Of a stretch of 64,000 nt of DNA, positions 8,998 through 57,672 are shown piece after piece. This DNA comes from Chromatiales bacterium (GTDB lineage Bacteria > Pseudomonadota > Gammaproteobacteria > JAGRGH01). Within the stretch, counting starts at the first letter, position 1. Every line of letters starts with the position of its first letter. Position numbers and translations under genes: made by a program. The DNA lies in contig JAGRGH010000037.1 in assembly GCA_020445605.1 (NCBI GenBank), forward strand, positions 177,949-241,948. Direction: 5' to 3'. The notes below the pieces were generated by a model. It was not told where the DNA came from. It did not search any database and worked only from the letters and a program-made list of their open reading frames with translations.

Positions 8998-10340
8998 GTC
9001 ACGAGCGCCGTTTTTTTGGTACCGACGGAATTCGCGGCCGCGTCGGCGAACCGCCGATCACGCCGGAATTCGTGATGAAGCTTGGCTGGGCCGCCGGGCG
9101 CGTGCTGGGCCGCGGTGCCGGCTCGCGCGTGCTGATCGGCAAGGACACCCGAATCTCCGGCTATGTCTTCGAGTCGGCACTCGAAGCCGGGCTGGCGTCC
9201 GCCGGTGTCGACGTCGGCCTGCTTGGCCCCATGCCCACGCCGGCAATCGCCTATCTGACGAGGACGTTCCGCGCCGACGCGGGAATCGTGATTTCGGCCT
9301 CGCACAACCCGTTCCACGACAACGGCATCAAGTTCTTTTCCCCGGAAGGACAGAAGCTGCCGGATGAAGTCGAACTGGAGATCGAGCGGGCGCTGGAGCT
9401 GCCGCTGGAAATGGTCGCGGCCGAGCGCGTGGGCAAGGCGCGGCGCATCGATCACGCCGCTGGTCGCTATATCGAGTTCTGCAAGTCCACGGTGCCGATT
9501 TCCACCTCCCTGGAGGGGCTGCGCATCGTGCTCGACTGCGCGCACGGAGCGACCTATCACATCGCCCCGCACGTGTTCGGCGAACTGCGCGCGCGCGTAA
9601 CGACCATGGGCGTCAGCCCGGACGGGCTGAACATCAACGCGGACTGCGGGTCCACACGCCCACAGGCCCTGCAGAGGGCGGTCGTCGAGGCGCGAGCCGA
9701 TCTCGGTATCGCGCTCGACGGTGACGGCGACCGGGTGGTGATGGTCGATGATCGCGGCGAGGTCGTCGATGGCGACGAACTGCTCTACATCATCGCCCGT
9801 GGACGTTACGCGGCCGGCGAACTGCATGGCGTGGTCGGCACCGTCATGAGCAACTTCGGGCTCGAGGAGGCGCTGAATGCGCTCGACGTGCCGCTGTCGC
9901 GCGCCCAGGTCGGAGACCGCTACGTGCTCGAAAACCTGCGCGCCAACGGCTGGACGCTGGGGGGCGAGTCCTCTGGCCACATCATCTGCCTGGATCGCAC
10001 GACCACGGGTGACGGCATTGTCGCGGCGCTGCAGGTGCTCGCCGAGATGCGTCGCACCGGCAAGTCACTGCGTGAGCTGCGCACCGAGATGCCGCGCTAT
10101 CCGCAGGTGCTGGTCAACGTCAGCGCGGAGGACAAGAAGGCCGTGCTGAACGCCGAGTCCGTACAGCGGGCCCTGGCGGACGCGGAAGCCGAACTGAACG
10201 GCCACGGCCGGATCCTGCTGCGGCCGAGCGGTACCGAGCCGCTGGTCCGCATCATGGTCGAGGGGCGTGATGCCGCAAACGTCGAGCGCATTGCGCTTGA
10301 GCTGAAAGGCGTGATCACTGGAGTGACCGGCGCGGCCTAG
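8994..10340 (+). CDS. glmM: phosphoglucosamine mutase
   Basis: [29 protein letters not shown] and the active-site region [14 protein letters not shown] (E. coli: ASHNPFYDNGIKFF). GTG start overlapping the folP stop (GTGA). Confidence 0.95.
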
Positions 10341-10343
10341 TGT

Positions 10344-10497
10344 CCTGTTGAAAAGACACGTCCGGGCTTTTCAGTAACAACCGGAAAGGGCGGTTTTCGG
10401 CTGCTCACGAAAATCAACCACTTGCGTGTTCGATTTTCGGGCGAGACGTCCCTGTCTCGCGATATCAGGCTGTTGAAATTCTCTTTTCAACAACCTG
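10344..10497. repeat. MITE-like palindromic repeat, copy 1
   Basis: ~155 bp in the glmM / PGPGW-gene spacer. Ends carry gttgaaa..tttcaac hairpins; the right end is TTTTCAACAACCTG. A ~93% identical inverted copy lies at 55203..55364. Confidence 0.75.
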
Positions 10498-10938
10498 CTA
10501 GAACCAGCCACTCACCCATGCGAAGGCCCAGCGCGCGAGCAGAATCAACACCACCAGGCTTGTGAGGCCGATCAGGATCACGACCGTCCAGCGTTTCGCT
10601 GGCGGCGTACGCACCCACCAAGCGTGAATCCGTCCCGCCCAGGCGCGCAGCAGCAACTCGCCGCGGTCAAGCAATCTCGCGACTACGCGAAACTCCTGAC
10701 CGATCAGCGCCAGCCCCACGACCAGCACCAGTAATCCGGGGCCGGGCGTCACCAGCATGACCAGCCCGGCCGTGATCAGCGCAGAACCCGAAGCGATCGC
10801 AATCAGGCTGCCGAGGCCGAACCAGCGTGGCCCCTCGCCGTGCCGCCGCCGGAAGCGGTCCTCGAAGCGCTGGCCCGGCCGGCTCGCGGCAAGTTCGTGC
10901 CAGTGCGCCTTGATCGTTTCGCGAATCTTTGTCCACAT
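10498..10938 (-). CDS. PGPGW-family small transmembrane protein
   Basis: 146-aa C-terminal part of a long ORF (MWTKIRETIKAHW...LVTPGPGLLVLVVGLALIG...) with two hydrophobic hairpins. The upstream extension of the same ORF (to 12438) runs antisense through tpiA/secG/tRNA and is rejected. Confidence 0.55.
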   Translation of the reverse strand: MWTKIRETIKAHWHELAASRPGQRFEDRFRRRHGEGPRWFGLGSLIAIASGSALITAGLVMLVTPGPGLLVLVVGLALIGQEFRVVARLLDRGELLLRAWAGRIHAWWVRTPPAKRWTVVILIGLTSLVVLILLARWAFAWVSGWF

Positions 10939-11091
10939 CGGGCGCGCACGATACGGGCGTGGGTGCCGGAACCGCAACGTCGATTGCCCCTGCGGGCGCC
11001 GCGTCCGGCCGCCGCCGCCGCGGTGTGGATTGATCAAAGCGACCCAAAAAAGGTATCCTGCGCGGCCTTTTTGACTGTGTTGGAGAGACCG

Positions 11092-11844
11092 ATGCGGCAG
11101 CCGCTGGTGGCCGGCAACTGGAAAATGAACGGTTCGCGCGCCAGTGCGCGGGAGCTGTTGGGCGGCGTGCTTGAGGGCCTCGCCGCCACGCCGGTCGCAT
11201 GTGAGGTTGCGGTGTTCGTGCCCTACGTGCTGCTCCAGCAGGTCTCCGAACAGCTCGCGGGCAGCGCCGTCACCTGGGGGGCGCAGAACCTTTCCACGGA
11301 AGCCAAGGGCGCGTTCACCGGCGAGATTTCGGCCGCGATGCTCAAGGAGTTTGGCAGCACGAGCGTCATCGTCGGTCATTCCGAGCGGCGCTCGCTGTAT
11401 GGCGAGACCGACGCGGTGGTCGCTAAGAAGTACCAGGTTGCGCGTGCCGCGGGGCTGCGGCCGATTTTCTGCATTGGCGAGACACTCGACGAGCGCGAAT
11501 CCGGCATCACCAACGAAGTCGTGGCACGCCAGATCGACGCGGTGATCGAGCTCGAAGGCGTGGCCGCGCTGGCCGACGGCGTGATTGCCTACGAGCCGGT
11601 CTGGGCGATCGGCACGGGTCGTACCGCCACACCCGAACAGGCGCAGGCCGTGCATGCGTTCATCCGTGGGCGCATCGCCGACCGCGATGCCACGGTGGCC
11701 GAGGGCGTGCAGATTCTCTACGGTGGCAGCATGAACGCCAAGAATGCCGCAGAGTTGCTTGCCCAGGCGGACATTGATGGGGGCCTGATCGGCGGTGCTT
11801 CGCTGATCGCGGCTGATTTTCTGACAATCTGTCGAGCTGCCTGA
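11092..11844 (+). CDS. tpiA: triosephosphate isomerase
   Basis: MRQPLVAGNWKMNGS...VIVGHSERR...AYEPVWAIGTG. The ATG at 11092 lies inside a longer frame-sharing ORF. Confidence 0.95.
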   Translation: MRQPLVAGNWKMNGSRASARELLGGVLEGLAATPVACEVAVFVPYVLLQQVSEQLAGSAVTWGAQNLSTEAKGAFTGEISAAMLKEFGSTSVIVGHSERRSLYGETDAVVAKKYQVARAAGLRPIFCIGETLDERESGITNEVVARQIDAVIELEGVAALADGVIAYEPVWAIGTGRTATPEQAQAVHAFIRGRIADRDATVAEGVQILYGGSMNAKNAAELLAQADIDGGLIGGASLIAADFLTICRAA

Positions 11845-12249
11845 ATGTTGCTGACCGTACTGCTGGTGGTGCATGTGATGCTGGCCGTGGGCCTTATCGC
11901 GCTCGTGCTTTTGCAGCACGGTCGCGGCGCCGACATGGGTGCGGCGTTCGGCAGCGGTGCGTCGGCGACCGTGTTCGGCGCACGTGGCGCGGCCTCGTTC
12001 CTGACGCGGACCACGGCGCTCCTGGCCACCGGCTTTTTCCTGACCAGCATGGCGCTCGCCTGGCTCGCGACCCGGCCCGCGCCACGCACCGACATCATGG
12101 AAGGCGTGGGGTTGCCGGCCACCGAGATCGCGGCTCCAGCCGCGGAGGCGACCGATGCCGCGCCCGCCGTGACGGTTGCACCGGATGCGCCGCCGCCGGC
12201 CAGCGATCAGGGTGCGGGCATTTCCGCGCCGCCGCCGGCCGCCGACTGA
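11845..12249 (+). CDS. secG: preprotein translocase subunit SecG
   Basis: LLQHGRGADMGAAFGSGASATVFGARGAASFLTRTTALLATGFFL matches SecG; Ala/Pro-rich low-complexity C-terminal tail. tpiA-secG-tRNA-Leu synteny. Confidence 0.88.
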   Translation: MLLTVLLVVHVMLAVGLIALVLLQHGRGADMGAAFGSGASATVFGARGAASFLTRTTALLATGFFLTSMALAWLATRPAPRTDIMEGVGLPATEIAAPAAEATDAAPAVTVAPDAPPPASDQGAGISAPPPAAD

Positions 12250-12352
12250 TCCAAGACCTTGAGTGCGGGACAACGGAACCGTTCCCGCGGATTGGCCCGT
12301 GTCACCGGGCATTCGCGCAGTGTCGCGACAGTTTGTGGACAGCTCTGACTCC

Positions 12353-12437
12353 GCCGACGTGGTGGAATTGGTAGACACGCCGTCTTGAGGGGGCGGTGGC
12401 GCAAGCCGTGCCGGTTCAAGTCCGGCCGTCGGCACCA
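12353..12437 (+). tRNA. tRNA-Leu (anticodon GAG)
   Basis: GCCGACGTGGTGGAATTGGTAGACACGCCGTCTTGAGGGGGCGGTGGCGCAAGCCGTGCCGGTTCAAGTCCGGCCGTCGGCACCA. Long variable arm; anticodon loop TTGAGGG; homologous to E. coli leuU, which also follows secG. Confidence 0.9.
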
Positions 12438-12512
12438 TTCGAGTCAGAATTCGTTGCGGCTCATCTGTCGCGGTTCGCAGCCGCAGGCGCTGAAATCGGC
12501 ACTGGGCGCATG

Positions 12513-19727: not shown

Positions 19728-20782
19728 TTGACAAGATCGTCGAGTTCTGGAACTGGCTGCCGGTATGGACGCATACGGTCGTCTATGTCGTGATGATTCT
19801 CGTGCCGCTGATGCTGTCGGTTGCGTACCTGACCTTTGCCGAGCGCAAGATCATCGGTTACATGCAGGTGCGCATCGGGCCGAACCGCGTCGGTCCCCGT
19901 GGCTGGCTGCAACCGATTGCCGATGCGCTGAAGCTGATGGTCAAGGAGATCGTCATCCCGACCGGCGCAAACAAGTTTCTGTTCATCCTCGCGCCGGTCA
20001 TCGCGATGGCGCCGGCGCTGGCGGCCTGGGCGGTGATTCCGTTTGATGCCGGCATCGTGCTCGCGGACATCAACGCCGGACTGCTGTATCTGCTGGCGCT
20101 GACCTCGGTCGCGGTCTACGGCGTGATCATCGCCGGCTGGGCATCCAACTCGAAGTATGCGTTCCTTGGCGCGTTGCGTTCGGCGGCGCAGATCGTCTCG
20201 TACGAAATTGCGATGGGCTTTGCGCTGGTCGCGGTGCTGATCGCGGCCGGCAGTCTGAACATGGGCGAGATCGTTCGCGCGCAGCAGGGCAGCCTGCTGC
20301 ACTGGTATTGGCTGCCGCTGTTGCCGATCCTGGTCGTGTATTTCATCTCCGCGGTCGCCGAGACCAACCGCGCGCCGTTTGACGTCGCCGAGGGTGAATC
20401 CGAGATCGTCGCGGGCTTCCATGTCGAGTACTCCGGCATGGCCTTTGCGGTGTTCTTCCTTGCCGAGTACGCGAACATGATCCTCGTCTCGGCACTGAGC
20501 GCGGTCATGTTCTTCGGCGGCTGGCTGTCGCCGTTCGAGGGCATTCCGTATCTCGAGGACTGGTTCGCCTGGGTGCCGGGGCTGTTCTGGCTGGTCGGCA
20601 AGACCGCCGTCTTCCTGTTCCTGTTCCTTTGGTTCCGTGCAACCTTCCCGCGCTATCGCTACGACCAGATCATGCGACTGGGCTGGAAGGTTTTCATTCC
20701 GATCACGATTGTGTGGCTGATCGTGGTCGCGGTCATGGTGCTCGGTGAAATGCCCTGGTGGTTCGACCGGAGGGCGGCATGA
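19724..20782 (+). CDS. nuoH: NADH-quinone oxidoreductase subunit H
   Basis: Polytopic membrane protein with ND1 motifs ([12 protein letters not shown]...[25 protein letters not shown]). Confidence 0.95.
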
Positions 20783-21270
20783 TCGGCACCTTCTGGCGCT
20801 ATCTGCGCAGTCTGACGCTCGCTGAGCTGCGGCGCGGGCTCGGCGTCACGGGCCGGCACCTGTTCGCGAAGAAGTTCACGCTCCAGTACCCGGATGAGCG
20901 TGCGCCGCAGTCGCCGCGCTTCCGCGGACTGCATGCGCTGCGCCGCTACCCGAACGGCGAGGAGCGCTGCATCGCCTGCAAGCTCTGCGAGGCGGTCTGT
21001 CCGGCGCTGGCGATCACGATCGAGGCCGCACCGCGGGCCGACGGCAGCCGCCGCACCACGCGCTACGACATCGACCTGTTCAAGTGCATCTACTGCGGAT
21101 TCTGCGAGGAGGCGTGTCCGGTCGATGCCATCGTCGAGACCCGCGTGTATGAGTACCACTTTGAAAATCGCGGTGAGCATGTGATGACTAAGGACATGCT
21201 GCTGGCCATCGGCGACCGGCACGAAAATCAGCTCGCCGCCGACCGCTCGGCCGACTCGGCGTATCGGTAG
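20779..21270 (+). CDS. nuoI: NADH-quinone oxidoreductase subunit I
   Basis: Two CxxCxxCxxxCP ferredoxin motifs ([24 protein letters not shown]). ATG overlaps the nuoH stop. Confidence 0.93.
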
Positions 21271-21285
21271 GGCTCGGGGGCGAAC

Positions 21286-21891
21286 GTGGAACTGACCGAC
21301 ATCCTGTTTTACCTGTTTGGCGCAAACCTGCTGTTCGCGGCGGTCATGGTGATCACCGCGCGCAATCCCGTGCATTCCGCGCTGTTCCTTGTCTACGCGT
21401 TTTTTTCCAGCGCGGCGCTGTGGCTGCTGCTGGAGGCGGAGTTTCTCGCCATCGCGCTGGTGCTGGTCTACGTCGGTGCCGTGATGGTGCTGTTCCTGTT
21501 TGTCGTCATGATGCTGGACATCAACATCGCCGCGCTCCGGGCTGGATTCATACGCTACCTGCCGGTCGGCATCTTCGTGGCCGTGGCCATCGTCGCGCAG
21601 ATGGCGCTGGTCGTCGGGCCCGAGGCCTTCGGTCTCGGGCGTTTCGGTGCGCCCGGCGCCCATCCGGCCGGCTACAGCAACACCGAGGAACTCGGTGCGG
21701 TGCTGTACACGACACACATGTTCGCGTTCGAGGTGGCCGCGGTGATCCTGCTCGTTGCCATCGTGGCGGCGATTGCGCTGACGCTGCGCCGGCGCGTGGG
21801 CACGCGCAGCCAGGACCCCTCGAAGCAGGCGTCGGTGCGCGCCGCGGATCGCCTGCGCATGGTCTCCATGCCACCCGAGCGCAAGGAGTAG
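21286..21891 (+). CDS. nuoJ: NADH-quinone oxidoreductase subunit J
   Basis: 201-aa membrane subunit at the expected position; GTG start. Confidence 0.85.
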   Translation: MELTDILFYLFGANLLFAAVMVITARNPVHSALFLVYAFFSSAALWLLLEAEFLAIALVLVYVGAVMVLFLFVVMMLDINIAALRAGFIRYLPVGIFVAVAIVAQMALVVGPEAFGLGRFGAPGAHPAGYSNTEELGAVLYTTHMFAFEVAAVILLVAIVAAIALTLRRRVGTRSQDPSKQASVRAADRLRMVSMPPERKE

Positions 21892-21894
21892 GGC

Positions 21895-22200
21895 ATGGTC
21901 AGTCTGGCGCACTACCTGATTCTGGCGGCGATCCTGTTTGGCCTGAGCATCGCGGGCATTTTCATCAACCGCAAGAACGTGATCCTGCTTCTGATGTGCA
22001 TCGAGCTGATGCTGCTCGCGGTGAACATGAACTTCATCGCGTTCTCGCGCTATCTCGACGACACGACCGGTCAGGTGTTCGTGTTCTTCATCCTTACGGT
22101 GGCTGCCGCCGAGGCCGCGATCGGGCTGGCAATCCTGGTCGTGCTGTTCCGCAACCGGCGCACCATCAACGTCGCCGACCTTGGCGAGCTGAAGGGCTAG
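21895..22200 (+). CDS. nuoK: NADH-quinone oxidoreductase subunit K
   Basis: 101-aa ND4L-like 3-TM protein ([12 protein letters not shown]...[13 protein letters not shown]). Confidence 0.93.
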
Positions 22201-22203
22201 GGC

Positions 22204-24192
22204 ATGCGTGAAGTATTGCTGACCGTCATCCTCGCGCCGCTGATCGGCGCCCTGATCGCGGGGTTCTTCGGACATCGAATCGGCCGGCGCGGTGCGCACA
22301 CGGTGACCATCGCCGGCGTGGCCGCCGCGTGTGTCGCAAGCTTCTACACGCTCAAGCGGCTTGCGCTCGATGGCGACCCCGCGATCGAGATGAGCCTGTA
22401 CACCTGGGCACTCAGCGAGGGCGTGCGCTTCGAGATCGGCTTCCTGGTCGACCGGCTCACTGCGCTGATGATGGTGGTCGTGACCTTCGTGTCACTGATG
22501 GTGCACATCTACACCATCGGCTACATGGCGCACGACGAGGAGAACTGGCCCGACGATTCGCGCGTGCGCAAGCACGGCTATCAGCGGTTCTTTTCCTACA
22601 TCGCGCTGTTTACGTTCTCGATGCTGATGCTGGTCATGTCGAACAACTTCCTGCAGCTGTTCTTCGGCTGGGAGGCGGTCGGGCTGGTTTCGTATCTGCT
22701 GATCGGGTTCTACATGACGCGCGAGTCGGCGATCCGCGCGAACCTCAAGGCATTCCTGGTCAATCGGGTCGGCGATTTCGGCTTCCTGCTCGGTATCGCG
22801 GCGATCTACTACTACTTCGGCTCGCTGGATTACCGGACGGTGTTCGCGGCCGCTCCGGGTCTCGGCGATGCGACGATCCAGGTGTTCGGCGCTTCGTCCT
22901 GGTCGGTCATGACGCTGATCGGCATCCTGCTGTTCATCGGCGCGATGGGCAAGTCCGCGCAGATGCCCCTGCACGTCTGGCTGCCGGATTCCATGGAAGG
23001 CCCGACGCCCATCTCCGCGCTGATCCACGCCGCGACCATGGTCACGGCCGGGGTGTTCATGGTCGCGCGCATGTCGCCGCTCTACGAGCTTTCGGAGACT
23101 GCGCTGTCGTTCGTGCTGGTCATGGGCGGTCTTACCGCATTCATGATGGGTCTGGTCGGCATCGTGCAGAACGACATCAAACGGGTCGTCGCGTACTCGA
23201 CACTCTCGCAGCTCGGCTACATGACCGTCGCGCTCGGGGTGTCGGCCTACGCGGGCGCCATCTTCCACCTGATGACGCATGCGTTTTTCAAGGCGCTGCT
23301 GTTCCTGGCGGCCGGTTCCGTGATCATCGCGATGCACCATGATCAGGACATCCGCAACATGGGTGGTCTGCGCAAGTACATGCCGATCACCTACTGGACC
23401 TCACTGATCGGTTCGCTGGCCCTGATCGGTACGCCGGGTTTTGCCGGGTTCTTTTCCAAGGATGCGATCATCGAGGCGGTGCACCACTCGAGCCTGCCCG
23501 GAGCGGGGCTGGTCTACTGGCTGGTTCTCGGCGGCGTGTTCGTTACGGCGTTCTATTCGTTCCGGATGTTTTTCTTGGTGTTCCACGGCGAACCGCGGAT
23601 GGATGCCCACACGCGCGAGCATCTGCGCGAGTCGCCGGCGGTCGTGACCATCCCGTTGATCCTGCTCGCGATTCCGTCCGTGATGATTGGCGCGGTCACG
23701 ATCGGTCCGTTGCTGTTCGACGGCTGGTTCGGTGAGGCGATCGTGGTCTCCGCGCGGCACGATGTGTTGGCCGAACTCGGCAAGGGCTGGCATGGCGTGC
23801 TCGGCTTTGTGCAGCACGGTCTGATGGGGCCGGCGTTCTGGCTGGCCGCGGCCGGCGTGCTGGCGGCCTGGTATCTCTACCTGCGTCAGCCGGCGCTGGC
23901 CGAAACACTGCGCCAGCGTTTCTCGTTTATCCACACGATCCTCGATCGCAAGTACTGGTTCGACGAGATCTATCAGTCGCTGTTCGCCGGTGGCGGACGC
24001 GGGCTGGGGCGTGCGCTGTGGCGTGGTGGCGACGCGACACTGATCGACGGCGTGGTCGTGAACGGCTCGGCAAATCTCGTCGGTCGCATTGCCGCGGTCG
24101 TCCGTCGCGTGCAGACCGGCTATCTGTACCACTACGCATTCGCGATGATCGTCGGTCTGCTCGTGCTGCTGTCCTGGTACCTGAACGGTTGA
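22204..24192 (+). CDS. nuoL: NADH-quinone oxidoreductase subunit L
   Basis: 662-aa ND5-like antiporter subunit (WLPDSMEGPTPISALIHAATMVTAGV). Confidence 0.95.
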   Translation: MREVLLTVILAPLIGALIAGFFGHRIGRRGAHTVTIAGVAAACVASFYTLKRLALDGDPAIEMSLYTWALSEGVRFEIGFLVDRLTALMMVVVTFVSLMVHIYTIGYMAHDEENWPDDSRVRKHGYQRFFSYIALFTFSMLMLVMSNNFLQLFFGWEAVGLVSYLLIGFYMTRESAIRANLKAFLVNRVGDFGFLLGIAAIYYYFGSLDYRTVFAAAPGLGDATIQVFGASSWSVMTLIGILLFIGAMGKSAQMPLHVWLPDSMEGPTPISALIHAATMVTAGVFMVARMSPLYELSETALSFVLVMGGLTAFMMGLVGIVQNDIKRVVAYSTLSQLGYMTVALGVSAYAGAIFHLMTHAFFKALLFLAAGSVIIAMHHDQDIRNMGGLRKYMPITYWTSLIGSLALIGTPGFAGFFSKDAIIEAVHHSSLPGAGLVYWLVLGGVFVTAFYSFRMFFLVFHGEPRMDAHTREHLRESPAVVTIPLILLAIPSVMIGAVTIGPLLFDGWFGEAIVVSARHDVLAELGKGWHGVLGFVQHGLMGPAFWLAAAGVLAAWYLYLRQPALAETLRQRFSFIHTILDRKYWFDEIYQSLFAGGGRGLGRALWRGGDATLIDGVVVNGSANLVGRIAAVVRRVQTGYLYHYAFAMIVGLLVLLSWYLNG

Positions 24193-24199
24193 TCCGCGA

Positions 24200-25708
24200 A
24201 TGAACGGCTGGCCCCTGCTCAGTATTGTCATCTGGCTGCCGATCATCGGCGGTGCGCTGGTCATCGCGCTCGGCGAGCGCCGGTCCTCGGCGCGCTGGGG
24301 GGCGCTTGCGGTTGCGCTGGCGACGTTTGTTCTGAGCCTGCCGCTGTACACGAGTTTCGATACAGCGTCCGCGGCCATGCAGTTCGTCGAGCGGGTCGCA
24401 TGGATCGAACGCTTCTCGATCTACTACCACCTTGGCGTGGACGGGTTTTCGGTGCCGCTGATTCTCCTGACGACCTTCACCACGGTGCTGGTCGTGATTG
24501 CAGGCTGGGAGGTGATCACGCGCCGTACCGCGCTGTACATGGGGGCGTTCCTGGTCATGGAAGGCTTCATGAACGGGGTGTTCGCCGCGCTGGATGCGAT
24601 CCTGTTCTACGTGTTCTGGGAAGCGCTGCTGGTGCCGATGTTCCTGATCATCGGCATCTGGGGCGGACCGCGACGCGTGTACGCAACGCTCAAGTTCTTT
24701 CTGTACACGTTCTTCGGCTCGGTGTTCCTGCTCGTCGCGTTGATCTACATGTATGTGCAGTCTTCTAGCTTCGCGATCCTGGACTTCCATGCCCTCGGTC
24801 TGGGCATGACGGCGCAGACCCTGATTTTCCTCGCGTTCCTGATCGCGTTCGCGGTCAAGGTGCCGATGTGGCCGGTGCACACCTGGCTGCCGGACGCGCA
24901 CGTCGAAGCCCCCACCGGGGGGTCGGTCATTCTGGCGGCGATCATGCTGAAGCTCGGGGCCTACGGCTTCATCCGGTTCGCGCTGCCGATCACCCCGGAT
25001 GCCAGCGCGCATCTCGACTGGCTGGTGATCGGCCTGTCGCTGGTCGCCGTGGCCTACATCGGTTTCGTGGCGCTGGTCCAGGAAGACATGAAGAAGCTCA
25101 TTGCGTACTCGTCGATTGCGCACATGGGTTTCGTCACGCTCGGTCTGTTCATCGTGTTTCGCATCCTCGCGAACACCGGTGACATCCAGGACGCCCAGCT
25201 CGGGGTCGCGGGCGGGGTCGTGCAGATGATCTCCCACGGTTTCATCTCCGGCGCGCTGTTCCTGTGCGTGGGTGTGCTCTACGACCGTGTGCACAGTCGC
25301 CAGATCGCCGACTACGGTGGCGTGGTGAACACCATGCCGGTGTTCGCCGCATTCATGGTGTTCTTCGCGCTGGCGAATTCCGGCCTGCCCGGCACCTCGG
25401 GATTCGTCGGCGAGTTCATGGTGATCCTGTCGAGCTTCAAGGCCGGATTCTGGATCGCGTTCGTCGCGGCCACGACCCTGATCCTGGGCGCGGCGTATTC
25501 TCTGTGGCTGGTCAAGCGCGTGGTGTACGGGCCGGTCGGCAACGACAAGGTCGCAAACCTGCAGGATCTCTCCGCGCGCGAAGGCCTGGTGCTCGCGACC
25601 CTCGCGGTGCCGGTGCTGGTCTTCGGCGTTTGGCCTGCGCCACTGATCGAGCTGATGCAGGGGTCGGTCGAACACCTGCTCGCACACCTGACGGTCTCCA
25701 AACTCTAG
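24200..25708 (+). CDS. nuoM: NADH-quinone oxidoreductase subunit M
   Basis: 502-aa ND4-like subunit (WLPDAHVEAPTGGSVILAAIMLKLGAYG). Confidence 0.95.
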   Translation: MNGWPLLSIVIWLPIIGGALVIALGERRSSARWGALAVALATFVLSLPLYTSFDTASAAMQFVERVAWIERFSIYYHLGVDGFSVPLILLTTFTTVLVVIAGWEVITRRTALYMGAFLVMEGFMNGVFAALDAILFYVFWEALLVPMFLIIGIWGGPRRVYATLKFFLYTFFGSVFLLVALIYMYVQSSSFAILDFHALGLGMTAQTLIFLAFLIAFAVKVPMWPVHTWLPDAHVEAPTGGSVILAAIMLKLGAYGFIRFALPITPDASAHLDWLVIGLSLVAVAYIGFVALVQEDMKKLIAYSSIAHMGFVTLGLFIVFRILANTGDIQDAQLGVAGGVVQMISHGFISGALFLCVGVLYDRVHSRQIADYGGVVNTMPVFAAFMVFFALANSGLPGTSGFVGEFMVILSSFKAGFWIAFVAATTLILGAAYSLWLVKRVVYGPVGNDKVANLQDLSAREGLVLATLAVPVLVFGVWPAPLIELMQGSVEHLLAHLTVSKL

Positions 25709-25715
25709 TCGCGCC

Positions 25716-27161
25716 ATGAGTCTGATGAACGCCGACCTGCAAACCGTGTTGCCCGAGATCGTTCTGCTCACCGCGGCCTGTGTGATCCTCGTGGTGGACG
25801 TGTTTCTGGACGACCGCCGCCGCGCTTGGACCTATGCGCTGTCACAGATCACCCTGCTCGGGCTGGTCGGTCTGCTGGTGGCTGGTTATTCGAGCGAGGT
25901 ACGCACGGCCTTTTCCGGCGCCTATGTGCGCGATCCGATGAGCGATCTGCTGAAGATCGCCAGTGCCCTGGCCACGGTCGGCGTATTCGCCTATGCGCGG
26001 GATTACCTGCGCGACCGCGGCCTGCTGAAGGGCGAGTTCTTTGTGCTCGGGCTCATGGCCCAGCTTGGCACGATGGTGATCATTTCCGCGCACAGCTTCC
26101 TGATTGCGTATCTCGGCCTGGAACTGCTGTCGCTGTCGCTGTATGCGCTGGTCGCGTTCGATCGCGATTCGGGGCTTGCGAGCGAATCGGCGATGAAGTA
26201 TTTCGTGCTTGGCGCGATCGCCTCCGGCCTGCTGCTGTACGGCATATCCATGATCTACGGGGTCACGGGCAGCGTGGATTTCGCCGAGGTTTCCCGGGCG
26301 CTGACCGATGGCAACGCCGGACCGCGCATCGTGCTGGTGTTCGGTCTGGTGTTCATCGTCGTCGGCGTCGCGTTCAAGCTCGGCGCCGTGCCGTTCCACA
26401 TGTGGGTGCCGGACGTCTATCACGGCGCGCCGACTGCGGTGGCCGCACTGGTCGGCAGCGCACCGAAGATCGCCGCCGTCGCGCTGGCGCTGCGAATTCT
26501 GGGCGACGGCTTGCAGAGTCTGCATGAGGACTGGTCGGGAATGCTCGTGGTGCTGTCGGTCCTGTCGCTGGCGATCGGCAATCTGGTTGCGATTGCGCAG
26601 ACCAACATCAAGCGCATGCTGGCCTATTCGACGATCTCGCACGTCGGTTTCATCGTGCTCGGCATCCTGTCCGGAAACGAGGACGGCTATTCGGCCGCCG
26701 TGTTCTACGCCATCGTCTACGCGTTCATGGCGCTCGGTGCCTTCGGCATCGTCATTGCCCTGTCGAAGGCCGGATTCGAGGCCGAGTCGCTGGACGACTA
26801 TCGCGGGCTCAATGAGCGCAGTCCGTGGCTCGCATTCCTGATGCTGCTGATCATGTTCTCGATGGCGGGCGTGCCGCCGACCGTGGGCTTCTACGCGAAG
26901 CTGGTCGTGCTCGAGGTCGTCGTGGACGTGGGCCTGGTGTGGCTCGCGATTGTTGCTGTCGTATTCTCGGTGATCGGCGCGTTTTACTACCTGCGTATTG
27001 TCAAGCTGATGTATTTCGACGAAGCGCGCGGCGAGGCGCCCGCGCGCGGTGCGATGGATACGCGCGTGATCCTCGGCATCAACGGGCTGGCCATGCTCGT
27101 GGCCGGCGTGTTCCCTGGCGGGCTGATGGGGCTGTGCCAGACCGCGGTCGCGGCCGGCTAG
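25716..27161 (+). CDS. nuoN: NADH-quinone oxidoreductase subunit N
   Basis: 481-aa ND2-like subunit (MWVPDVYHGAPTAVAALVGSAPKIAA); last canonical nuo gene. Confidence 0.93.
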   Translation: MSLMNADLQTVLPEIVLLTAACVILVVDVFLDDRRRAWTYALSQITLLGLVGLLVAGYSSEVRTAFSGAYVRDPMSDLLKIASALATVGVFAYARDYLRDRGLLKGEFFVLGLMAQLGTMVIISAHSFLIAYLGLELLSLSLYALVAFDRDSGLASESAMKYFVLGAIASGLLLYGISMIYGVTGSVDFAEVSRALTDGNAGPRIVLVFGLVFIVVGVAFKLGAVPFHMWVPDVYHGAPTAVAALVGSAPKIAAVALALRILGDGLQSLHEDWSGMLVVLSVLSLAIGNLVAIAQTNIKRMLAYSTISHVGFIVLGILSGNEDGYSAAVFYAIVYAFMALGAFGIVIALSKAGFEAESLDDYRGLNERSPWLAFLMLLIMFSMAGVPPTVGFYAKLVVLEVVVDVGLVWLAIVAVVFSVIGAFYYLRIVKLMYFDEARGEAPARGAMDTRVILGINGLAMLVAGVFPGGLMGLCQTAVAAG

Positions 27162-27177
27162 GTCGGTCGAACGCCTC

Positions 27178-28497
27178 GTGTCGGGCGCCCGCCCACCGCT
27201 GCCGGCTTCCTGCACCAATCTCTGGCTGAACCTCGGCGGCTTGGCCTGTGGCATGGCTGCGATGGTGTTCGTCGTGCGCATGCCGGAGCTCGACGTCGCC
27301 GTCGCCGCGATGATCGTCATGGCGGCGGCCGCCGGTTTCATTGCCACTGGCGAGGTGTTGCGTCTGCGCGGGCGCATGCTGCGCAACGCCGGTCTGGCCG
27401 CGGATCCGCCCAACGAGTTTGACCTCAACCGCGTCGGTCTCAAACTTCTGGGGCTGTATGGCACCTTCGTGTGCATCGGTTTCGTGTACTGGCTGCTGCA
27501 CGAGTACCACGGCTCGTTCTACGCGCCGTTCTGGCGCATGCTGCGCCTCGCGCTGCCGGCGCTCATCGTGCTGGCGGTGCCGTATTTCTTCTGGACCGAC
27601 CGGCGACAGAGCGCGCCGCATGACGGCTACTATCATGCGGGCCTTTTGTTCGCGGGGCGCTGGAAAGGGCTGAACCGCCAGGTGCTCAAACAGCACGCGC
27701 TCGGCTGGGGGGTGAAGGCGTTCTTCCTGCCGCTGATGCTGGTGTTCTTCACCACGGATATCCATTTCTATCGCGGCTTCGACTTCACCCACATCTGGGA
27801 CGAATTCCGGCTGTTCTACGATCTCAGCTACCGATTGCTGTTCAGCATGGACCTGCTGTTCGCAACCTTTGGATACGTCACCACACTGCGGCTGTTCGAC
27901 GCGCACATCCGCTCGACGCAGTCGACCCTGGTCGGCTGGCTGGCGGCGCTGATCTGCTATCAGCCGCTGTGGTCGTTCGTCTATCGCACGTATCTACCGT
28001 ATGAAGACGGCGCGCGCATGTGGGGTCCGTGGCTTGCGAACGGCGAGCCCTTCGTCTGGGGCGCGACCGCGCCGTACCTGTTCTGGGGCGGCGCGATCCT
28101 GCTGCTGCTGGCGATCTACGGACTGGCCACGGTCGCATTCGGCCTGCGGTTTTCAAACCTTACGCATCGCGGCATCATCACCGGCGGTCCGTATCGTTAC
28201 TCGAAGCATCCGGCGTACTGGTCGAAGAACCTCAGCTGGTGGTTGATCAGCGTTCCGTTCATCACGCTCGGCAGCGCCGCGGACGCGGTTCGGCACTGTC
28301 TGATGCTGTTGATGCTGAACGGCATCTACTGGCTGCGCGCCTACACCGAGGAGCGGCACCTGTCCGGCGATCCGGTGTATGTGGAGTACGCGCTGGCGAT
28401 GAACGAGCGCAGCTGGCTGGCGCCGCTGGTGCGGCGCTTTCCCGTGCTGAAATTTCTGAACTACCGTCCACCCGCGCCGGAGCGGGCCGGGCGTTGA
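27178..28497 (+). CDS. polytopic membrane protein with C-terminal ICMT/PEMT-like (class VI) methyltransferase domain
   Basis: 439 aa, many TM segments. C-terminus GGPYRYSKHPAYWSKNLSWW...LRAYTEERHLSGDPVYVEY matches the G-x-Y-x-x-x-RHP-x-Y and EE..L..Y signature of isoprenylcysteine carboxyl / phospholipid methyltransferases. 16 nt after nuoN. Start codon uncertain (GTG at 27178 or a downstream ATG). Confidence 0.5.
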   Translation: MSGARPPLPASCTNLWLNLGGLACGMAAMVFVVRMPELDVAVAAMIVMAAAAGFIATGEVLRLRGRMLRNAGLAADPPNEFDLNRVGLKLLGLYGTFVCIGFVYWLLHEYHGSFYAPFWRMLRLALPALIVLAVPYFFWTDRRQSAPHDGYYHAGLLFAGRWKGLNRQVLKQHALGWGVKAFFLPLMLVFFTTDIHFYRGFDFTHIWDEFRLFYDLSYRLLFSMDLLFATFGYVTTLRLFDAHIRSTQSTLVGWLAALICYQPLWSFVYRTYLPYEDGARMWGPWLANGEPFVWGATAPYLFWGGAILLLLAIYGLATVAFGLRFSNLTHRGIITGGPYRYSKHPAYWSKNLSWWLISVPFITLGSAADAVRHCLMLLMLNGIYWLRAYTEERHLSGDPVYVEYALAMNERSWLAPLVRRFPVLKFLNYRPPAPERAGR

Positions 28498-45026: not shown

Positions 45027-45125
45027 AAAAAAATGCGCCGCGTCCCTGCGGCGCCATGCGCGGACAAAGCCGGCCAGACAGTCCTTGTGCGGGACGAAAA
45101 CGAAAAAGCGCGGTTTTTCGTTTTC
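45027..45125. terminator. convergent terminator region (two hairpins)
   Basis: GC hairpin GCGCCGC-gtccct-GCGGCGC preceded by AAAAAAA (a T-run on the minus strand), serving the secreted-protein gene. Second 12-bp hairpin GAAAACGAAAAA-gcgcgg-TTTTTCGTTTTC plus T-rich tail, serving the + strand. Confidence 0.55.
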
Positions 45126-45207
45126 TTACATTTTCAGTGGCTTAGGGACATTGAAAGTGGTGGCACGTCCCTGTGCCACGGGAAACTCTGAATTGATCAG
45201 AGTTTCC

Positions 45208-46791
45208 TTAGAGATCCCACCAGTCGAAATCGAAGTTCGTACCGAGCAGAGGGTCGATATAGATCGCGAGAAGCTGTCCGTACTCGACCAGCGCCGCGTC
45301 CGGATGATCCTCGTGGGCCTGTACGTCAAACATATACCAGCCGGCGCCGAGCACATCGTGCATGTCGGTGATGCCGGAGGATTCCTCGTCGGTCGTGATG
45401 AACTCGGCTGCGCCCTCGGAGAAGTAGCGGGGGTCGTGCGCCGCGACTTCGATCAGCTCCTGGGTCTCGATGCCGTAGAGCCAGATCTTGCCCAGACGCG
45501 CATTGCCGCCGACGTCTTCCTGCATGACGATTCGGCCGTAGATGTCGACCGTCAGGTTGTCGAGCATCTGGTGACCTTCGTCACCGTCGAGCAGCAGTTC
45601 AATCGTGCCTCCGTAACGGAACGGATCATCGACATCACGGAAGCGCAGTTGCCACAAGCGACTGGCGAGGTTGCTCGCGTCCCCGGCGCCACGGAAGTTG
45701 CCGGTCGTCACGAAATAGAAGTCGTTCTCGTGGCCGGGACGGGGATCCCATGCGCCGTCCTCGATGCGCTGAAAACGCGTAACGTCGCCCGCAATCGATT
45801 CGGCCTGAAGTTCGGCGCCAGTCTTGTTTGCGACCCATCCATGATCAACCAGGGTGAACTGCGCGCGCCGAACAAAGCCCATCTCGGCATTGCCGAGACC
45901 GAATTCGTTGCTTTCCTCTGGAATTGCGTCACCAGCCTGATACACGCGTACGCCACGCAGTATGCCGTTGAGGAGTCCCGCGCGCGCGACCACGTTGCCG
46001 GTCGTCTGCTTCCAGCCAGCGTAAACATAGAGCTCTGACGGCGCGTCGGTGCTGGCAGGGTCGGTCACACGATCCGCGTCGTCGAGTCCGATCACAAGTG
46101 TGCGCATGCGCGAGTGCGGGTGCGGCGCGATGTTTTCAAAAGCCATCTTCCCGAGCGTCGGCAGTTCATAGAGCTTGCCGGCTTCGGGGCCCGTCGCAAC
46201 GTATGCGAACCCGCGGCCGTGGTCGTCGGAGAACGGCGGACGGGTTTCCTCTCCGGTGAGAAAGATTCGATCTGCGGTACCGTAGGTTTCGCCGTTTTCA
46301 AAAATGAACGCCTGTGGTGAAGCGAGGGTGGCCGAACAGAACCGGTTGAAAGCGTCGGTTCCGCTGACAAACCACTGGCTGTCGGTGTCCCAGGTATTGA
46401 CGTCGGTGCCGCTTGCGACCGCATCGCGACCACTGAGCACCTCGAGGTTTGTATTGCGGATCTTCCAGCGCGACAGGAACGAGCCGGTTGAACCATGTGC
46501 ACGCACGGTGCCGGCCTCCGGCCCAAACTCGTGATTCAGGATAAGGTCGAACGTGCCGTCGCCGTTGTTGATGCCACCCAGACCATCGGGGATTCCAGCC
46601 ATTGTGTAGCCGCCGATTGTATCGCCGACGGTCAACACAGAGATCACGGCCACGCGGTCGCCGAGCAGCGGGTTTGCCTTCATGTACGGTTCGGCAGCGG
46701 TGCTTGGCCCGATATTGGCTGCACTGACCGCGGTCGAGGCTACGCCGATCGCCATCGCGATCGCGGAGCGACATACGCTATGAATTTTCAT
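45208..46791 (-). CDS. secreted hypothetical protein (possible beta-propeller / PhoX-like fold)
   Basis: Signal peptide MKIHSVCRSAIAMAIGVASTAVSAANI with an SD GGTGA 7 nt upstream of the ATG at 46791. Gly/Asp-rich repeats (FQRIEDGAWDPR, YFVTTG) are compatible with DUF839/PhoX-like propeller proteins, but the family assignment is not secure. Confidence 0.5.
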   Translation of the reverse strand: MKIHSVCRSAIAMAIGVASTAVSAANIGPSTAAEPYMKANPLLGDRVAVISVLTVGDTIGGYTMAGIPDGLGGINNGDGTFDLILNHEFGPEAGTVRAHGSTGSFLSRWKIRNTNLEVLSGRDAVASGTDVNTWDTDSQWFVSGTDAFNRFCSATLASPQAFIFENGETYGTADRIFLTGEETRPPFSDDHGRGFAYVATGPEAGKLYELPTLGKMAFENIAPHPHSRMRTLVIGLDDADRVTDPASTDAPSELYVYAGWKQTTGNVVARAGLLNGILRGVRVYQAGDAIPEESNEFGLGNAEMGFVRRAQFTLVDHGWVANKTGAELQAESIAGDVTRFQRIEDGAWDPRPGHENDFYFVTTGNFRGAGDASNLASRLWQLRFRDVDDPFRYGGTIELLLDGDEGHQMLDNLTVDIYGRIVMQEDVGGNARLGKIWLYGIETQELIEVAAHDPRYFSEGAAEFITTDEESSGITDMHDVLGAGWYMFDVQAHEDHPDAALVEYGQLLAIYIDPLLGTNFDFDWWDL

Positions 46792-47003
46792 GCATTCACC
46801 TTGCATTGCCAGCAGATTGATGTTTTCCCGGCATCAGGTCCGGGGCGGCAAAGCTTGCCGGCGCGAGGTGACGCGTCGTTGACGCGCGATTTACGAATAC
46901 ATCATTGTTTTGCTGCGCTACGGTTGCGGGTGAAATATCGCGGACATGCCGATGAAACATCGGCATCTCAATTGGCGGCGTTCGGTCGCCGGTCTGCGAT
47001 CGG

Positions 47004-55170: not shown

Positions 55171-55202
55171 ATCGTTCAGTCTTTGCCGGGACAGGTCGTT
55201 GG

Positions 55203-55364
55203 CAGGCGGTTGAAATTCTGATTTCAACGGCCTGATATCGCGCGACAGGGACGTCTCGCCCGAAAATCGAACACACAAGTGTTTGATTTTCGTGAGCAAC
55301 CGAAAACCGCGCTTTTCGGTTGCGATGTTGAAAAGGCCATGGATGGGCCGTTTTCAACAACCTG
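55203..55364. repeat. MITE-like palindromic repeat, copy 2 (inverted relative to copy 1)
   Basis: ~160 bp with terminal hairpins GTTGAAATTCTGATTTCAAC and GTTGAAAAGGCC..GGGCCGTTTTCAAC. Right TIR TTTTCAACAACCTG abuts the stop codon of the downstream minus-strand gene. Core is ~93% identical to the reverse complement of 10381..10471. Confidence 0.75.
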
Positions 55365-56066
55365 TTAGCGCATGCGCACGACGGCATATAGATCGTAGGG
55401 GTCGCGGAAGGTCCACATGCAGTCGGCAAACCCGGCGCGCGCGGCGATGGCCTCCCAGCTCGGGATGGATTCCGGGTGATCCTGATTCAGCACGTGGGCG
55501 CTGACGCGGCTCAACTGGTCCTCGCTCAGATCGGCCCACTGATCGCGAAAGCAGCGCACGCTGCGTTCGAGAAACTGTTCGCGGGTCTCGTCGTCGCGAC
55601 GGAACACGTCATAGACGAAGATCTCACCGTCGTCGGTCAGCTGGTCGTGCATCCACGCGAGCAGTTCGCGTTTCTCGTCGTTTTCCAGATGATGCATGGA
55701 ATAGCCGGCGACGATCAGGTGGTACGGCCGGTCGGCGTAGTCGGCCGACCGCTGCATGGTGTCGGCGTGTAGCTGGATGTCACGCACGCGGCCGTCCAGG
55801 TTCTTGCGGGCGAACTCCAGCGCCGGCGCGGACAGATCGATCCCGCGATAGTGCGCGATCTCGTTGCCTTCGAGCGCCTGGCTCAGCACGTAGGCATCGC
55901 CACAGCCGACCTCGAGCACGTTCATGTCCACATGCAGCAGGCCGCCGAGCGCCCGACGCATCTGGTCGGTGATCTCGTTGTGCAGCATGTAGTTGCCGGC
56001 AATGACCTGCTGGTAGAGCTGCCAGCCTTCGAAGAAGGACTGGATGTCTTTGTCGTCCTGGTTCAT
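55365..56066 (-). CDS. class I SAM-dependent methyltransferase
   Basis: Motif I VLEVGCGDAYVLSQAL, acidic motif II, ~233 aa. Co-oriented downstream of glgB-glgA. Confidence 0.75.
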   Translation of the reverse strand: MNQDDKDIQSFFEGWQLYQQVIAGNYMLHNEITDQMRRALGGLLHVDMNVLEVGCGDAYVLSQALEGNEIAHYRGIDLSAPALEFARKNLDGRVRDIQLHADTMQRSADYADRPYHLIVAGYSMHHLENDEKRELLAWMHDQLTDDGEIFVYDVFRRDDETREQFLERSVRCFRDQWADLSEDQLSRVSAHVLNQDHPESIPSWEAIAARAGFADCMWTFRDPYDLYAVVRMR

Positions 56067-56209
56067 CGCATGTGGCCCCAGACGGTTGTGGATGACGGCC
56101 GGCCTCGTGCGCGGTGGCGGCCAGTTGTGCGGCCGGCGTCGGGCGTTGCAGAAATATGGCACGCCGGCCGGTACATGTCACGTCCCGGTTATTACCCGGG
56201 CACGGCGGC

Positions 56210-57658
56210 TCAGGGACGTTGCAGGAGGTCTTGGTACAGGGCCGAATAGCGCTGGGCGCTGGCCCGCCAGCTGAAGTCGCGCTGCATGGCGTTGCGCTGC
56301 ATCTGGCGCCAGACGGACGGTTCGCGCCAGACGGCGATGGCCTGTCGGAGCGCGCCGGCCAGGTCTTTCTGCGTGGCCTCGCCGAATGAAAAGCCGGTGG
56401 CGGTTTCCAGGTTCGAACGCTTGACGTCGAGGCCGGTCACGGTGTCCGCAAGCCCGCCCGTGGCGCGCACGATCGGCAGCGTGCCGTAGCGCATGGAGTA
56501 CATCTGGTTCAGCCCGCAGGGTTCGTAGCGCGAGGGCATGACGAAGGCGTCCGCGCCCGCCTCAATGCGATGCGCGAGCTGTTCGTCGTAACCTAGGCGC
56601 ACGGCCACCGCGTCCGGAAAGCGCGTGGCGAGCGATGACAGGGTCTGTTCGAGTTCGGGATCGCCACTGCCGAGCACGGCGAGCTGTGCGCCCTGCTCGA
56701 TCAGCGCGGGCAGGGTCTGCACGAGCAGATCGATGCCTTTCTGGTAGGCGAGCCGGCTGACCACGCCGAACAGCGGCGCCTCCAGATACGGACGCAGGCC
56801 GAGCGCCTGTTGCAGCAGTTCCTTGTTGCGCTGTTTGTAGCCGAGCCGCGCGGCGCTGTATTTGCGCACGACGTGCGGATCGCCAGCAGGATCCCACACG
56901 CGCGTGTCGATGCCGTTGACGATGCCGGTCAGCGCGTCCGCGCGCTTGCGCAGCATTCCGTCCATGCCAAATCCAAAGTCAGCGGTCTGGATCTCTTCGG
57001 CATAGGTCGGGCTCACGGTCGTGATCGCGTCGCTGTAGACGATGCCGGCCTTCAGGAACGAGAAATGCCCGTAGAACTCCGCGCCATCCGGTGTGTAGAC
57101 CGACCACGGCAGCCCGAGCGTGTCGACACTTTGCGGTGCGAAATTGCCCTGGTAGCCGATGTTGTGGATGGAGAACACCGAGCGCACCCCGGCGACGGGT
57201 TTCAGCCGCAGCCATAGCGCGGCGGGGCCGGTCTGCCAGTCGTTCAGATGCAGGATCTGCGGCCGCCAGTCGCCGGGCAACCCGCCCACGCAGAGCATGG
57301 TCGCGACTTCCGAGAGCAGGCCGAACCGGATCGCGCTGTCGGCGTGCTCCTGACCCTGCTCGTTCAGGTACGGACCACCCGGTCGCTCGTACAGGGCGGG
57401 TGCGATCAGCGTGTACACCGGGACTTTCGTATCCGGCATGCGGTATTCGCCGATCTCCACCGGCCCGACGCGGGTTTGCAGCGTCGCGGTCGCGCGTGCG
57501 CGCCCGAGGGCCTTTGTGACCGCCGGATACGCTGGCAGCAGGATGCGGCAGTCGTGGCCGGTTTCGACCAGCGCCGCCGGCAGGGCGCCGGCGACATCGG
57601 CGAGACCGCCGGTCTTGACCAGCGGCTGCACCTCGGAGGCGACGAACAGGATGCGCAC
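56210..57658 (-). CDS. glgA: glycogen synthase (ADP-glucose type)
   Basis: MRILFVASEVQPLVKTGGLADVAGALPAAL... (GT5 KTGGL motif). Confidence 0.95.
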   Translation of the reverse strand: MRILFVASEVQPLVKTGGLADVAGALPAALVETGHDCRILLPAYPAVTKALGRARATATLQTRVGPVEIGEYRMPDTKVPVYTLIAPALYERPGGPYLNEQGQEHADSAIRFGLLSEVATMLCVGGLPGDWRPQILHLNDWQTGPAALWLRLKPVAGVRSVFSIHNIGYQGNFAPQSVDTLGLPWSVYTPDGAEFYGHFSFLKAGIVYSDAITTVSPTYAEEIQTADFGFGMDGMLRKRADALTGIVNGIDTRVWDPAGDPHVVRKYSAARLGYKQRNKELLQQALGLRPYLEAPLFGVVSRLAYQKGIDLLVQTLPALIEQGAQLAVLGSGDPELEQTLSSLATRFPDAVAVRLGYDEQLAHRIEAGADAFVMPSRYEPCGLNQMYSMRYGTLPIVRATGGLADTVTGLDVKRSNLETATGFSFGEATQKDLAGALRQAIAVWREPSVWRQMQRNAMQRDFSWRASAQRYSALYQDLLQRP

Positions 57659-57672
57659 GTCGGCCGGGTCGG

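Follow-up and report, generated by a model that had tools for sequence, protein, structure and literature searches.

A family of five-hairpin MITEs with a 4-bp YTAR target-site duplication, often placed on stop codons, in uncultured Gammaproteobacteria

Short mobile repeats of bacterial genomes are told apart largely by their ends and by what they do to their targets. REPs have neither inverted-repeat ends nor a target duplication and carry a conserved GTAG head. Among insertion sequences, IS630 duplicates TA, IS200/IS605 leaves no target duplication, and IS481-like elements have the 6-bp target NCTAGN. IS5 duplicates 4 bp with the consensus YTAR (PMC5009759), and IS711, which belongs to the IS5 family, duplicates only the TA of YTAR (PMC2266754). 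The Correia/NEMIS elements of Neisseria and the ERIC/IRU MITEs are co-transcribed with neighbouring genes into structured RNA (PMC10969869); stop codons and CsrA are both absent from this review of prokaryotic MITEs, published in 2024. For CsrA itself, the consensus selected by SELEX is RUACARGGAUGU, with GGA placed in a hairpin loop (PMC4347634).

The repeat family described here shares features with several of these systems without coinciding with any of them. Like Correia/NEMIS and ERIC/IRU, it consists of non-coding units in the range of ~100-160 bp, present in many dispersed intergenic copies, each ending in inverted repeats and flanked by a target duplication with TA at its centre (PMC10969869). 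It differs from them in having a 4-bp YTAR duplication instead of TA, inverted repeats of unrelated sequence, five local hairpins rather than one long fold-back, no promoter-like site detected by scanning, a strong preference for stop codons and the 3' ends of genes, and GGA loops on one strand. The 4-bp YTAR duplication is that of IS5, a DDE-transposase element (PMC5009759), but unlike IS5 no transposase gene is associated with it here. With REP/BIME and the RAYT-mobilised REPINs it has in common an intergenic mosaic of short palindromic units that often lie between convergent genes and can be added or nested; the original prediction had called the element REP-like, a label at odds with its inverted-repeat ends and 4-bp duplications, which set the family apart from REP. 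It resembles CsrB/RsmY/RsmZ in having hairpins in series whose loops read A(N)GGA on one of the two strands, with 8-12 such hairpins in its long variants, whereas the best Rfam RsmY match reaches 23 bits against a threshold of 57, a promoter of its own was not found in a scan, and its units are copies of a mobile element that face either way with respect to genes. Finally, SPRITE/BOX/RUP of Streptococcus pneumoniae are also small modular repeats that nest in each other, and SPRITE resembles terminators (PMC10969869), but they belong to another phylum and have other sequences; moreover, neither of the two copies from which this work started holds a canonical stem-plus-T-run terminator (0 in each), contrary to the earlier suggestion that the element may supply terminators.

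These two copies lie in the window, a stretch of 64,000 nucleotides from a contig of a Chromatiales bacterium (JAGRGH010000037.1), and represent one ~160-bp element in inverted orientation relative to each other. Copy 1 spans 10341..10497 (157 bp; nhmmer E 3e-27) and copy 2 spans 55203..55364 (162 bp; nhmmer E 1e-31). The strand with GGA loops, designated strand A, is the minus strand in copy 1 and the plus strand in copy 2. Over the whole element, the alignment of copy 1 with the reverse complement of copy 2 gives 86% column identity (83.5% over 158 nt by BLAST), and the core 10378-10469 agrees with the reverse complement of 55231-55322 at 86/92 positions (93.5%), very close to the ~93% over a ~95-nt core at 55231..55322 that had been predicted. 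The window contains exactly two occurrences of a 26-nt core common to both copies, and none of 100 shuffles contains it. The termini of the window element are CAGGnTGTTGAAA...TTTCAACAnCCTG. As had also been noticed, the same end sequence directly adjoins the stop codon of a minus-strand gene in both copies: TTTTCAACAACCTG forms the last letters at 10497 and at 55364, followed at once by the triplets CTA and TTA, respectively. Because the copies are inverted, this sequence is the left end of the element in copy 1 and the right end in copy 2. The terminus across from it has degenerated in both (TGTCCTGTTGAAAA in copy 1, CAGGCGGTTGAAAT in copy 2), so that an inverted repeat of 14-16 bp is clear at the family level only; the 14-bp terminal inverted repeats proposed from the sequence hold for the family and not for the window copies, each with one decayed end. 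Both window copies are old, with one end eroded in each.

Copy 1 takes up the entire 157-nt spacer between glmM and the PGPGW gene, and lies between a CTAG at 10337..10340, which contains the glmM stop TAG (10338-10340), and a second CTAG at 10498..10501, whose CTA (10498-10500) gives the minus-strand PGPGW gene (10498-10938) its TAG stop. Of the extent first proposed, 10344-10497, the right end is correct and the left end moves to 10341, next to the CTAG flank. Once the boundary has been set by alignment the flanks of copy 1 match exactly (CTAG/CTAG), although CTAG is a palindrome and this copy alone cannot tell a direct from an inverted repeat. In copy 2, the left flank TTGG (55199..55202) agrees at three of four positions with the right duplication TTAG (55365..55368), whose TTA (55365-55367) is the TAA stop of a minus-strand SAM-methyltransferase gene (55365-56066).

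On strand A each window copy is made up of five hairpins in series, in the order H5-H4-H3-H2-H1; the terminal hairpins originally reported do exist, but they account for only part of this body. In H5 the left inverted repeat is paired with an inverted copy of itself alongside (10466-10497 in copy 1, where the 5' arm is the left terminal inverted repeat CAGGTTGTTGAAAA at 10484..10497 of the minus strand; 55203-55234 in copy 2). H4 has a G+C-rich stem of 6-7 bp and the loop AGGGAC, and reads GCGAGAC-AGGGAC-GTCTCGC in copy 1 (10441..10460, minus strand; copy 2, 55240-55259). H3 is A/T-rich, with stem arms of up to 14 nt (CGAAAATCRAACAC-loop-GTGTTYGATTTTCG); in copy 1 it has a GCAA loop and two mismatched inner positions (10408..10439, minus strand; copy 2, 55261-55292). 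H2 has the form AACCGAAAA...TTTTCGGTT and is partly decayed in copy 1, where it reads CAGCCGAAAA...CCGGTTG (10378..10403, minus strand; copy 2, 55296-55323). H1, which is GTTGAAAA-GGCC-ATGGAT-GGCC-TTTTCAAC, is followed by the final 6 nt of the right inverted repeat. In copy 1 this portion covers 10341..10374 of the minus strand, with the hairpin at 10347-10374 and the degenerate right terminus TTTTCAACAGGACA at 10341-10354, while in copy 2 the hairpin lies at 55327-55358 and the right inverted repeat at 55351-55364, on the plus strand like the other hairpins of that copy. The window loops are ACAGGGACGU in H4 and CCAUGGAUGG in H1.

The family extends well beyond the window. In an exact scan of species-representative genomes, a degenerate H3 pattern found 30 loci in 11 other gammaproteobacterial MAGs, which include Acidiferrobacterales, Halothiobacillaceae/Halothiobacillus, Porticoccaceae and unclassified Gammaproteobacteria. 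There were up to 11 loci per MAG, every one at an unrelated position, and hairpin order and ends were alike at all 30 loci of this genome set. In the Halothiobacillaceae and JBGFRC populations the copies differ very little from one another and are therefore recent. The H1 pattern matched at least 120 contigs in JGI metagenomes, and from among the matches listed a metagenome set of 75 non-identical elements with both ends was drawn, ascertained independently of the genome set. Element lengths are 150-165 bp, with modes at 152 and 161 bp in the metagenome set. Fifty-six diverse elements can be aligned end to end, and across them the family inverted repeats of 15-16 bp, CAGGnTGTTGAAAAA...TTTTTCAACAnCCTG, are nearly invariant. 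The elements are non-coding, the flanking ORFs terminating within the flanks. No match was obtained in a plasmid database searched with the whole element, in viral contigs searched with the H3 and H1 patterns, or in JGI metagenomes searched with a window-specific 25-mer core. Multiple copies elsewhere, conserved ends and statistically supported target-site duplications bear out the view of a dispersed non-autonomous mobile element with which this locus was first put forward, and the alternative named beside it, a simple duplicated intergenic segment, is set aside by the further copies in other genomes and metagenomes together with their conserved ends.

Evidence for the duplication comes from both sets. 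The 4-mers on the two sides were identical in 12 of 25 elements of the genome set, copy 1 among them (permutation p<1e-5). When elements with CTAG on the left were left aside, 6/16 still matched exactly (GTAG twice, TTAG twice, ATAA and CAAG; p=1e-4), and in most of the remaining ones the flanks agreed at 3/4 positions. The metagenome set had 33/75 exact matches against 14.9+-2.9 expected, a further 29 elements matching at 3/4. Duplicated 4-mers included TTAG, CTAG, TTAA, CTAA, ATAG and GTAG, and the consensus is YTAR, with TTAG and CTAG prevailing. In one MAG (SDAY), nearly identical copies have different but internally matching flanks (GTAG/GTAG, CAAG/CAAG, TTAT/CTAT), which indicates a duplication made by staggered cuts rather than a fixed, guide-specified target. 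Two other lengths were considered and rejected, namely a 3-bp TAG duplication, given that the first base of the 4-mer is duplicated too and that no length other than 4 bp makes the inverted repeats symmetric, and a 6-bp NCTAGN duplication of the IS481-like kind, which by inspection does not fit the flanks. The elements are MITEs with a 4-bp YTAR duplication and a five-hairpin body; from the target motif and the duplication length only, we infer a link to IS5.

Since TAG or TAA is part of the duplicated target, elements often coincide precisely with a stop codon. For ORFs of at least 90 codons, 9/25 elements of the genome set have a left duplication that provides the in-frame stop of a same-strand ORF, and 7-8/25 have a right duplication that terminates a convergent one. 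In the metagenome set, the duplicated TAG/TAA coincides with the stop of a flanking ORF at 26/150 ends. Stop-codon ends are distributed as 19 left versus ~24 right. Copy 1 is an example of both at once, its duplicated CTAG supplying the stop for the two convergent genes glmM and PGPGW; removal of the element and of one CTAG leaves ...GCGGCCTAGAACCAG..., in which the glmM TAG and the CTA of the PGPGW gene overlap by two bases. Elements between divergent genes are nearly absent (0/24 and 1/37), most being found between convergent genes or downstream of a gene. Orientation in tandem contexts is near random (16 sense versus 10 antisense, plus 6-7 versus 2-3), which fits neutral insertion and speaks against each copy being a selected cis-regulator.

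A diverged sister family with the same five-hairpin plan has the termini GGAAACTCTGA...TCAGAGTTTCC. One of its elements lies on the minus strand of the window at 45027..45210 (E 2.8e-4), with the order H5-H4-H3-H2 kept: the hairpin 45181-45207 (GGAAACTCTGA) adjoins the TAA stop (45208-45210) of the minus-strand gene 45208-46806 and is followed by H4 with its GGA loop, an H3-like unit and H2. The other end of this element (45027-45054) is a GGA-loop hairpin, GCGCCGC-AGGGAC-GCGGCGC, followed by T7, and was flagged as terminator-like by the scan. Two tandem copies of the sister family (L164 8886-9133) lie on the same contig ~1 kb upstream of the window start; together they occupy the whole of a 315-nt spacer that separates a methyltransferase gene from a convergent short-chain dehydrogenase gene, with CTAG flanking each.

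Variant forms of several kinds were also encountered. In the Acidiferrobacterales MAG CAMYII there are expanded elements at L001 3214-3605, L002 2896-3279 and L012 1202-1659, of 384-458 nt, with 8-12 extra hairpins between H3 and H1, nearly all of them having A(N)GGA loops on one strand; within the first, an RsmY match at L001 3359-3443 scored ~23 bits (23.3), below the gathering score of 57. In MAG JBGFRC, the copies in L003, L004, L009, L010, L013, L018, L019, L020 and L023 share an 84-nt insertion in H4 that forms three further hairpins and gives a 235-bp element, and the one in L019 has in addition a duplicated H2-H1 end (309 bp). The same MAG carries other MITE families that have the termini and H1 in common and a different interior, at L003 5313-5545, L022 3835-4066, L019 2087-2255 and L018 7284-7462, with target duplications of TTAA, TTAG, TTAG and CTAA, respectively; the first of these elements is only 16 bp from a family-1 copy. 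At the other extreme, minimal forms were met at L081 ~1795-1845 and also in L128 and L051: one is a solo H1 unit of ~45 bp with TTAG on both sides, and others are short H5-H4-H1 versions, one of them with an inverted H1 loop (CCATCCTTGG).

Folding z-scores of the window copies, on both strands, range from -3.8 to -7.3. RNAalifold predicted five helices on the 56-sequence alignment, with double changes in 23/31 pairs. In this alignment 94.8% of the cells were paired, compared with 73.5% in shuffles and 39-51% with slid partners, and 377 cells had double changes, whereas shuffles gave 122 and slid controls no more than 146. Paired changes in DNA palindromes could also come from template-switch correction of one arm, and covariation alone is therefore no proof of RNA function; an initial reading of it as such was abandoned, since in the template-switch examples L011 and L030 the change includes the flank. 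At these loci (L011 6160-6320, L030 7349-7510) the 4 nt after H5 and the left target duplication show a joint change that the right duplication, still in its older form, does not share. Among 100 elements, the 4 nt inside the element after H5 were the reverse complement of the left flank in 20, versus 9.4 expected.

The loops behave differently from the stems. They are the most conserved internal feature of the elements, though they were not used in finding them, and this conservation is confined to one strand. GGA is present in the H4 loop of 50/56 elements and in the H1 loop of 52/56, with CA(N)GGANG in the H4 of 42/56. Of 87 distinct H1 inner sequences, 50 have CA(N)GGANG on strand A and a single one has it on the opposite strand, and the H1 stems vary while the loops stay (GTCC, GCCC, GGCC, CGCC, CGAT and others). 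For all hairpin loops of the genome set, GGA occurs in 62/159 on strand A versus 3/167 on strand B. Strand A also folds better in 43/56 elements (mean ddG -4.2 kcal/mol), with 111 G-U pairs against 71. By motif comparison the H4 and H1 loops match the CsrA/RsmA ligand motif on one strand and are putative binding sites. No sigma-70-like promoter was found in either window copy by a consensus scan; in Rfam searches at the gathering score and at a relaxed E-value the window gave only tRNA and sub-threshold noise, the CsrB/RsmY/RsmZ covariance models at gathering score leaving it without a match, and no csrA was recognized by motif in the sequences scanned, an outcome that is uninformative. Selfish double-stranded DNA (cut-and-paste) transposition leaves the one-strand loop conservation unexplained. 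Such conservation needs a strand-specific selective agent, for which an RNA-binding protein (CsrA, for example) and a single-stranded mobilisation intermediate are the candidates; in a variant of the carrier reading taken up in the closing paragraph, one-strand loops may be required for mobilisation itself, via a single-stranded DNA or RNA intermediate.

Three other origins were weighed against a MITE family moved by an IS5-like enzyme. In one of them the repeats are a REP/BIME-like mosaic of palindromic units spread by a single-strand-specific HUH transposase (RAYT or IS200/IS605-type). The element does consist of independent palindromic units in a row, some copies have gained further or nested hairpins (the 84-nt H4 insert of one MAG, the 384-458-nt arrays of another), the 4 nt after H5 tend toward complementarity with the left flank, and loops conserved on one strand while stems covary are what an enzyme reading single strands would select. 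However, the flanking 4-mers covary within one subfamily in a single genome (the SDAY MAG), the ends are clear inverted repeats of 15-16 bp, absent from REPs and IS200/IS605, the conserved GTAG head is missing, and no Y1/RAYT gene was seen in the genome fragments scanned. This origin has a small chance of being correct, and the IS200/IS605 partner envisaged by the original prediction is likewise hard to reconcile with a 4-bp target duplication at YTAR. The IS630 partner offered in the same place is countered by the duplication being 4 bp at YTAR, outer bases included. Were the family a Tc1/IS630-type MITE that duplicates only TA within CTAG, the frequency of CTAG flanks with a central TA would be accommodated, and IS711 does duplicate TA within YTAR (PMC2266754). 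A TA-only duplication was nevertheless rejected, as the outer bases of the 4-mer are duplicated too, in GTAG/GTAG, ATAA/ATAA, ATAG/ATAG and CTAA/CTAA as well as in CAAG/CAAG, which lacks TA altogether; of the origins considered, this one is highly improbable.

The remaining possibility dispenses with selfish transposition and regards the repeat as primarily a regulatory RNA of the host, a module of 3'-UTRs or an sRNA whose hairpins would bind CsrA/RsmA, kept by its RNA function and repeated through recruitment. It draws on the match of the H4 and H1 loops to the CsrA SELEX consensus RUACARGGAUGU, on the better folding of strand A in 43/56 elements, on the L001, L002 and L012 arrays with their 8-12 GGA hairpins, one of which arrays has a sub-threshold RsmY score of 23 bits, and on the GGA-loop terminator that ends the sister element at 45027-45054. 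Its prospects are slim all the same: the elements have transposed, as their inverted-repeat ends and target-site duplications show, they face the flanking genes in nearly random directions, and the window copies have no promoter-like site and belong to no Rfam family at threshold. The favoured explanation, to which we assign a probability of about 0.82, is a non-autonomous MITE family with a 4-bp YTAR duplication and five hairpins that is moved in trans by an IS5-like DDE transposase.

In the mechanism proposed for such a MITE family, a DDE transposase acting in trans would cut YTAR with a 4-bp stagger, in the manner of IS5. TAG or TAA being within the duplicated target, an element that enters precisely at a stop codon would leave a restored stop on either side. 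Insertions of this type would be harmless and would persist, which may account for the position of the elements at the 3' ends of genes and between convergent ones. The most likely target of copy 1 was a CTAG shared by the overlapping stops of glmM (TAG) and of the PGPGW gene (CTA), each gene now having its own CTAG. Transcription of the flanking genes into the element would produce an RNA that folds into the five hairpins and that probably protects the 3' end of the flanking mRNAs. As judged from the motif match, RNA of strand A would expose a pair of CA(N)GGANG loops such as CsrA/RsmA binds.

A source of the presumed transposase was sought in the window and in other sequences. The transposase search recommended with the original prediction, with IS200/IS605 or IS630 in mind, came out empty, no transposase domain being present among the 26 window ORFs scanned with Pfam. 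A search of ~1 Mb of sequence for an autonomous partner gave no ORF-enclosing pair of inverted repeats 0.6-3.5 kb apart with matching flanks, and yielded one 630-bp chance pair only; at this coverage the negative evidence is weak. Candidates for a more distant partner upstream of H1 matches turned out to be other MITEs, degenerate H5 units, and truncated or solo-H1 forms.

The window itself is core genome (carAB, greA, ftsH, folP, glmM, tpiA, secG, the nuo operon, relA/spoT and glgB/A/C) of an organism without close relatives: its GlmM is 100% identical to a protein that NCBI lists under a 'Chromatiales bacterium' MAG, and the next-best GlmM has 66-70% identity. In ~74 kb sampled of this organism's own genome there are 2 copies of the family and 3 of the sister family. 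All contigs read with an identical GlmM (24/24) have the same 157-nt spacer, and all those read with an identical methyltransferase (24/24) have the same 194-nt spacer, from which it follows that both window copies are fixed in the population. Look-ups with GlmM, the methyltransferase and CarA returned filled sites only, with neither empty sites nor presence-absence polymorphism. Copy 2 is at the distal end of a glycogen gene cluster (window 55365-62966) comprising glgA (56210-57658), a glgB-like gene (57673-59910), glgC (59990-61258), a GH57 gene (61248-62966) and the methyltransferase gene; transcripts of this cluster would carry strand B of copy 2, with UCC loops, and not the GGA strand. 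Behind the PGPGW gene, a minus-strand frame of 646 codons (10498-12438) is spurious past ~146 codons, as it crosses tpiA and secG on the opposite strand as well as a tRNA gene at 12353-12434 (Rfam, 50.6 bits). Window positions 20001-28000 have an AT skew of -0.24 to -0.28, the rest of the window being near -0.05, and long ORFs of the plus strand, situated downstream of the nuo genes that were called, fill this stretch.

In summary, the repeats belong to a known class, that of MITEs, and are unusual in the occupancy of stop codons at both ends, the modular five-hairpin body and the CsrA-like loops. They apparently represent an undescribed and large MITE superfamily of uncultured sulfur- and iron-cycling Gammaproteobacteria (Acidiferrobacterales, Halothiobacillaceae and 'Chromatiales' MAGs): a literature search found no paper tying MITEs to these taxa, and the phrase 'miniature inverted-repeat' is absent from a mobile-element paper on Acidiferrobacter. 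Preference for YTAR together with its duplication offers a clean example of a transposon that lands on stop codons and leaves both convergent genes unharmed. For the annotation of such MAGs, the family accounts for many contig breaks and for many 'sRNA-like' intergenic regions with a high degree of structure. A further reading, suggested by the loop motifs and held to be rather unlikely, is that the family acts as a mobile carrier of predicted CsrA/RsmA-binding hairpins, the expanded copies being CsrB/RsmZ-like sponges. If this were true, each insertion would add two high-affinity CA(N)GGANG loops to transcripts running through strand A, and a transposable element would rewire or titrate a global post-transcriptional regulator.
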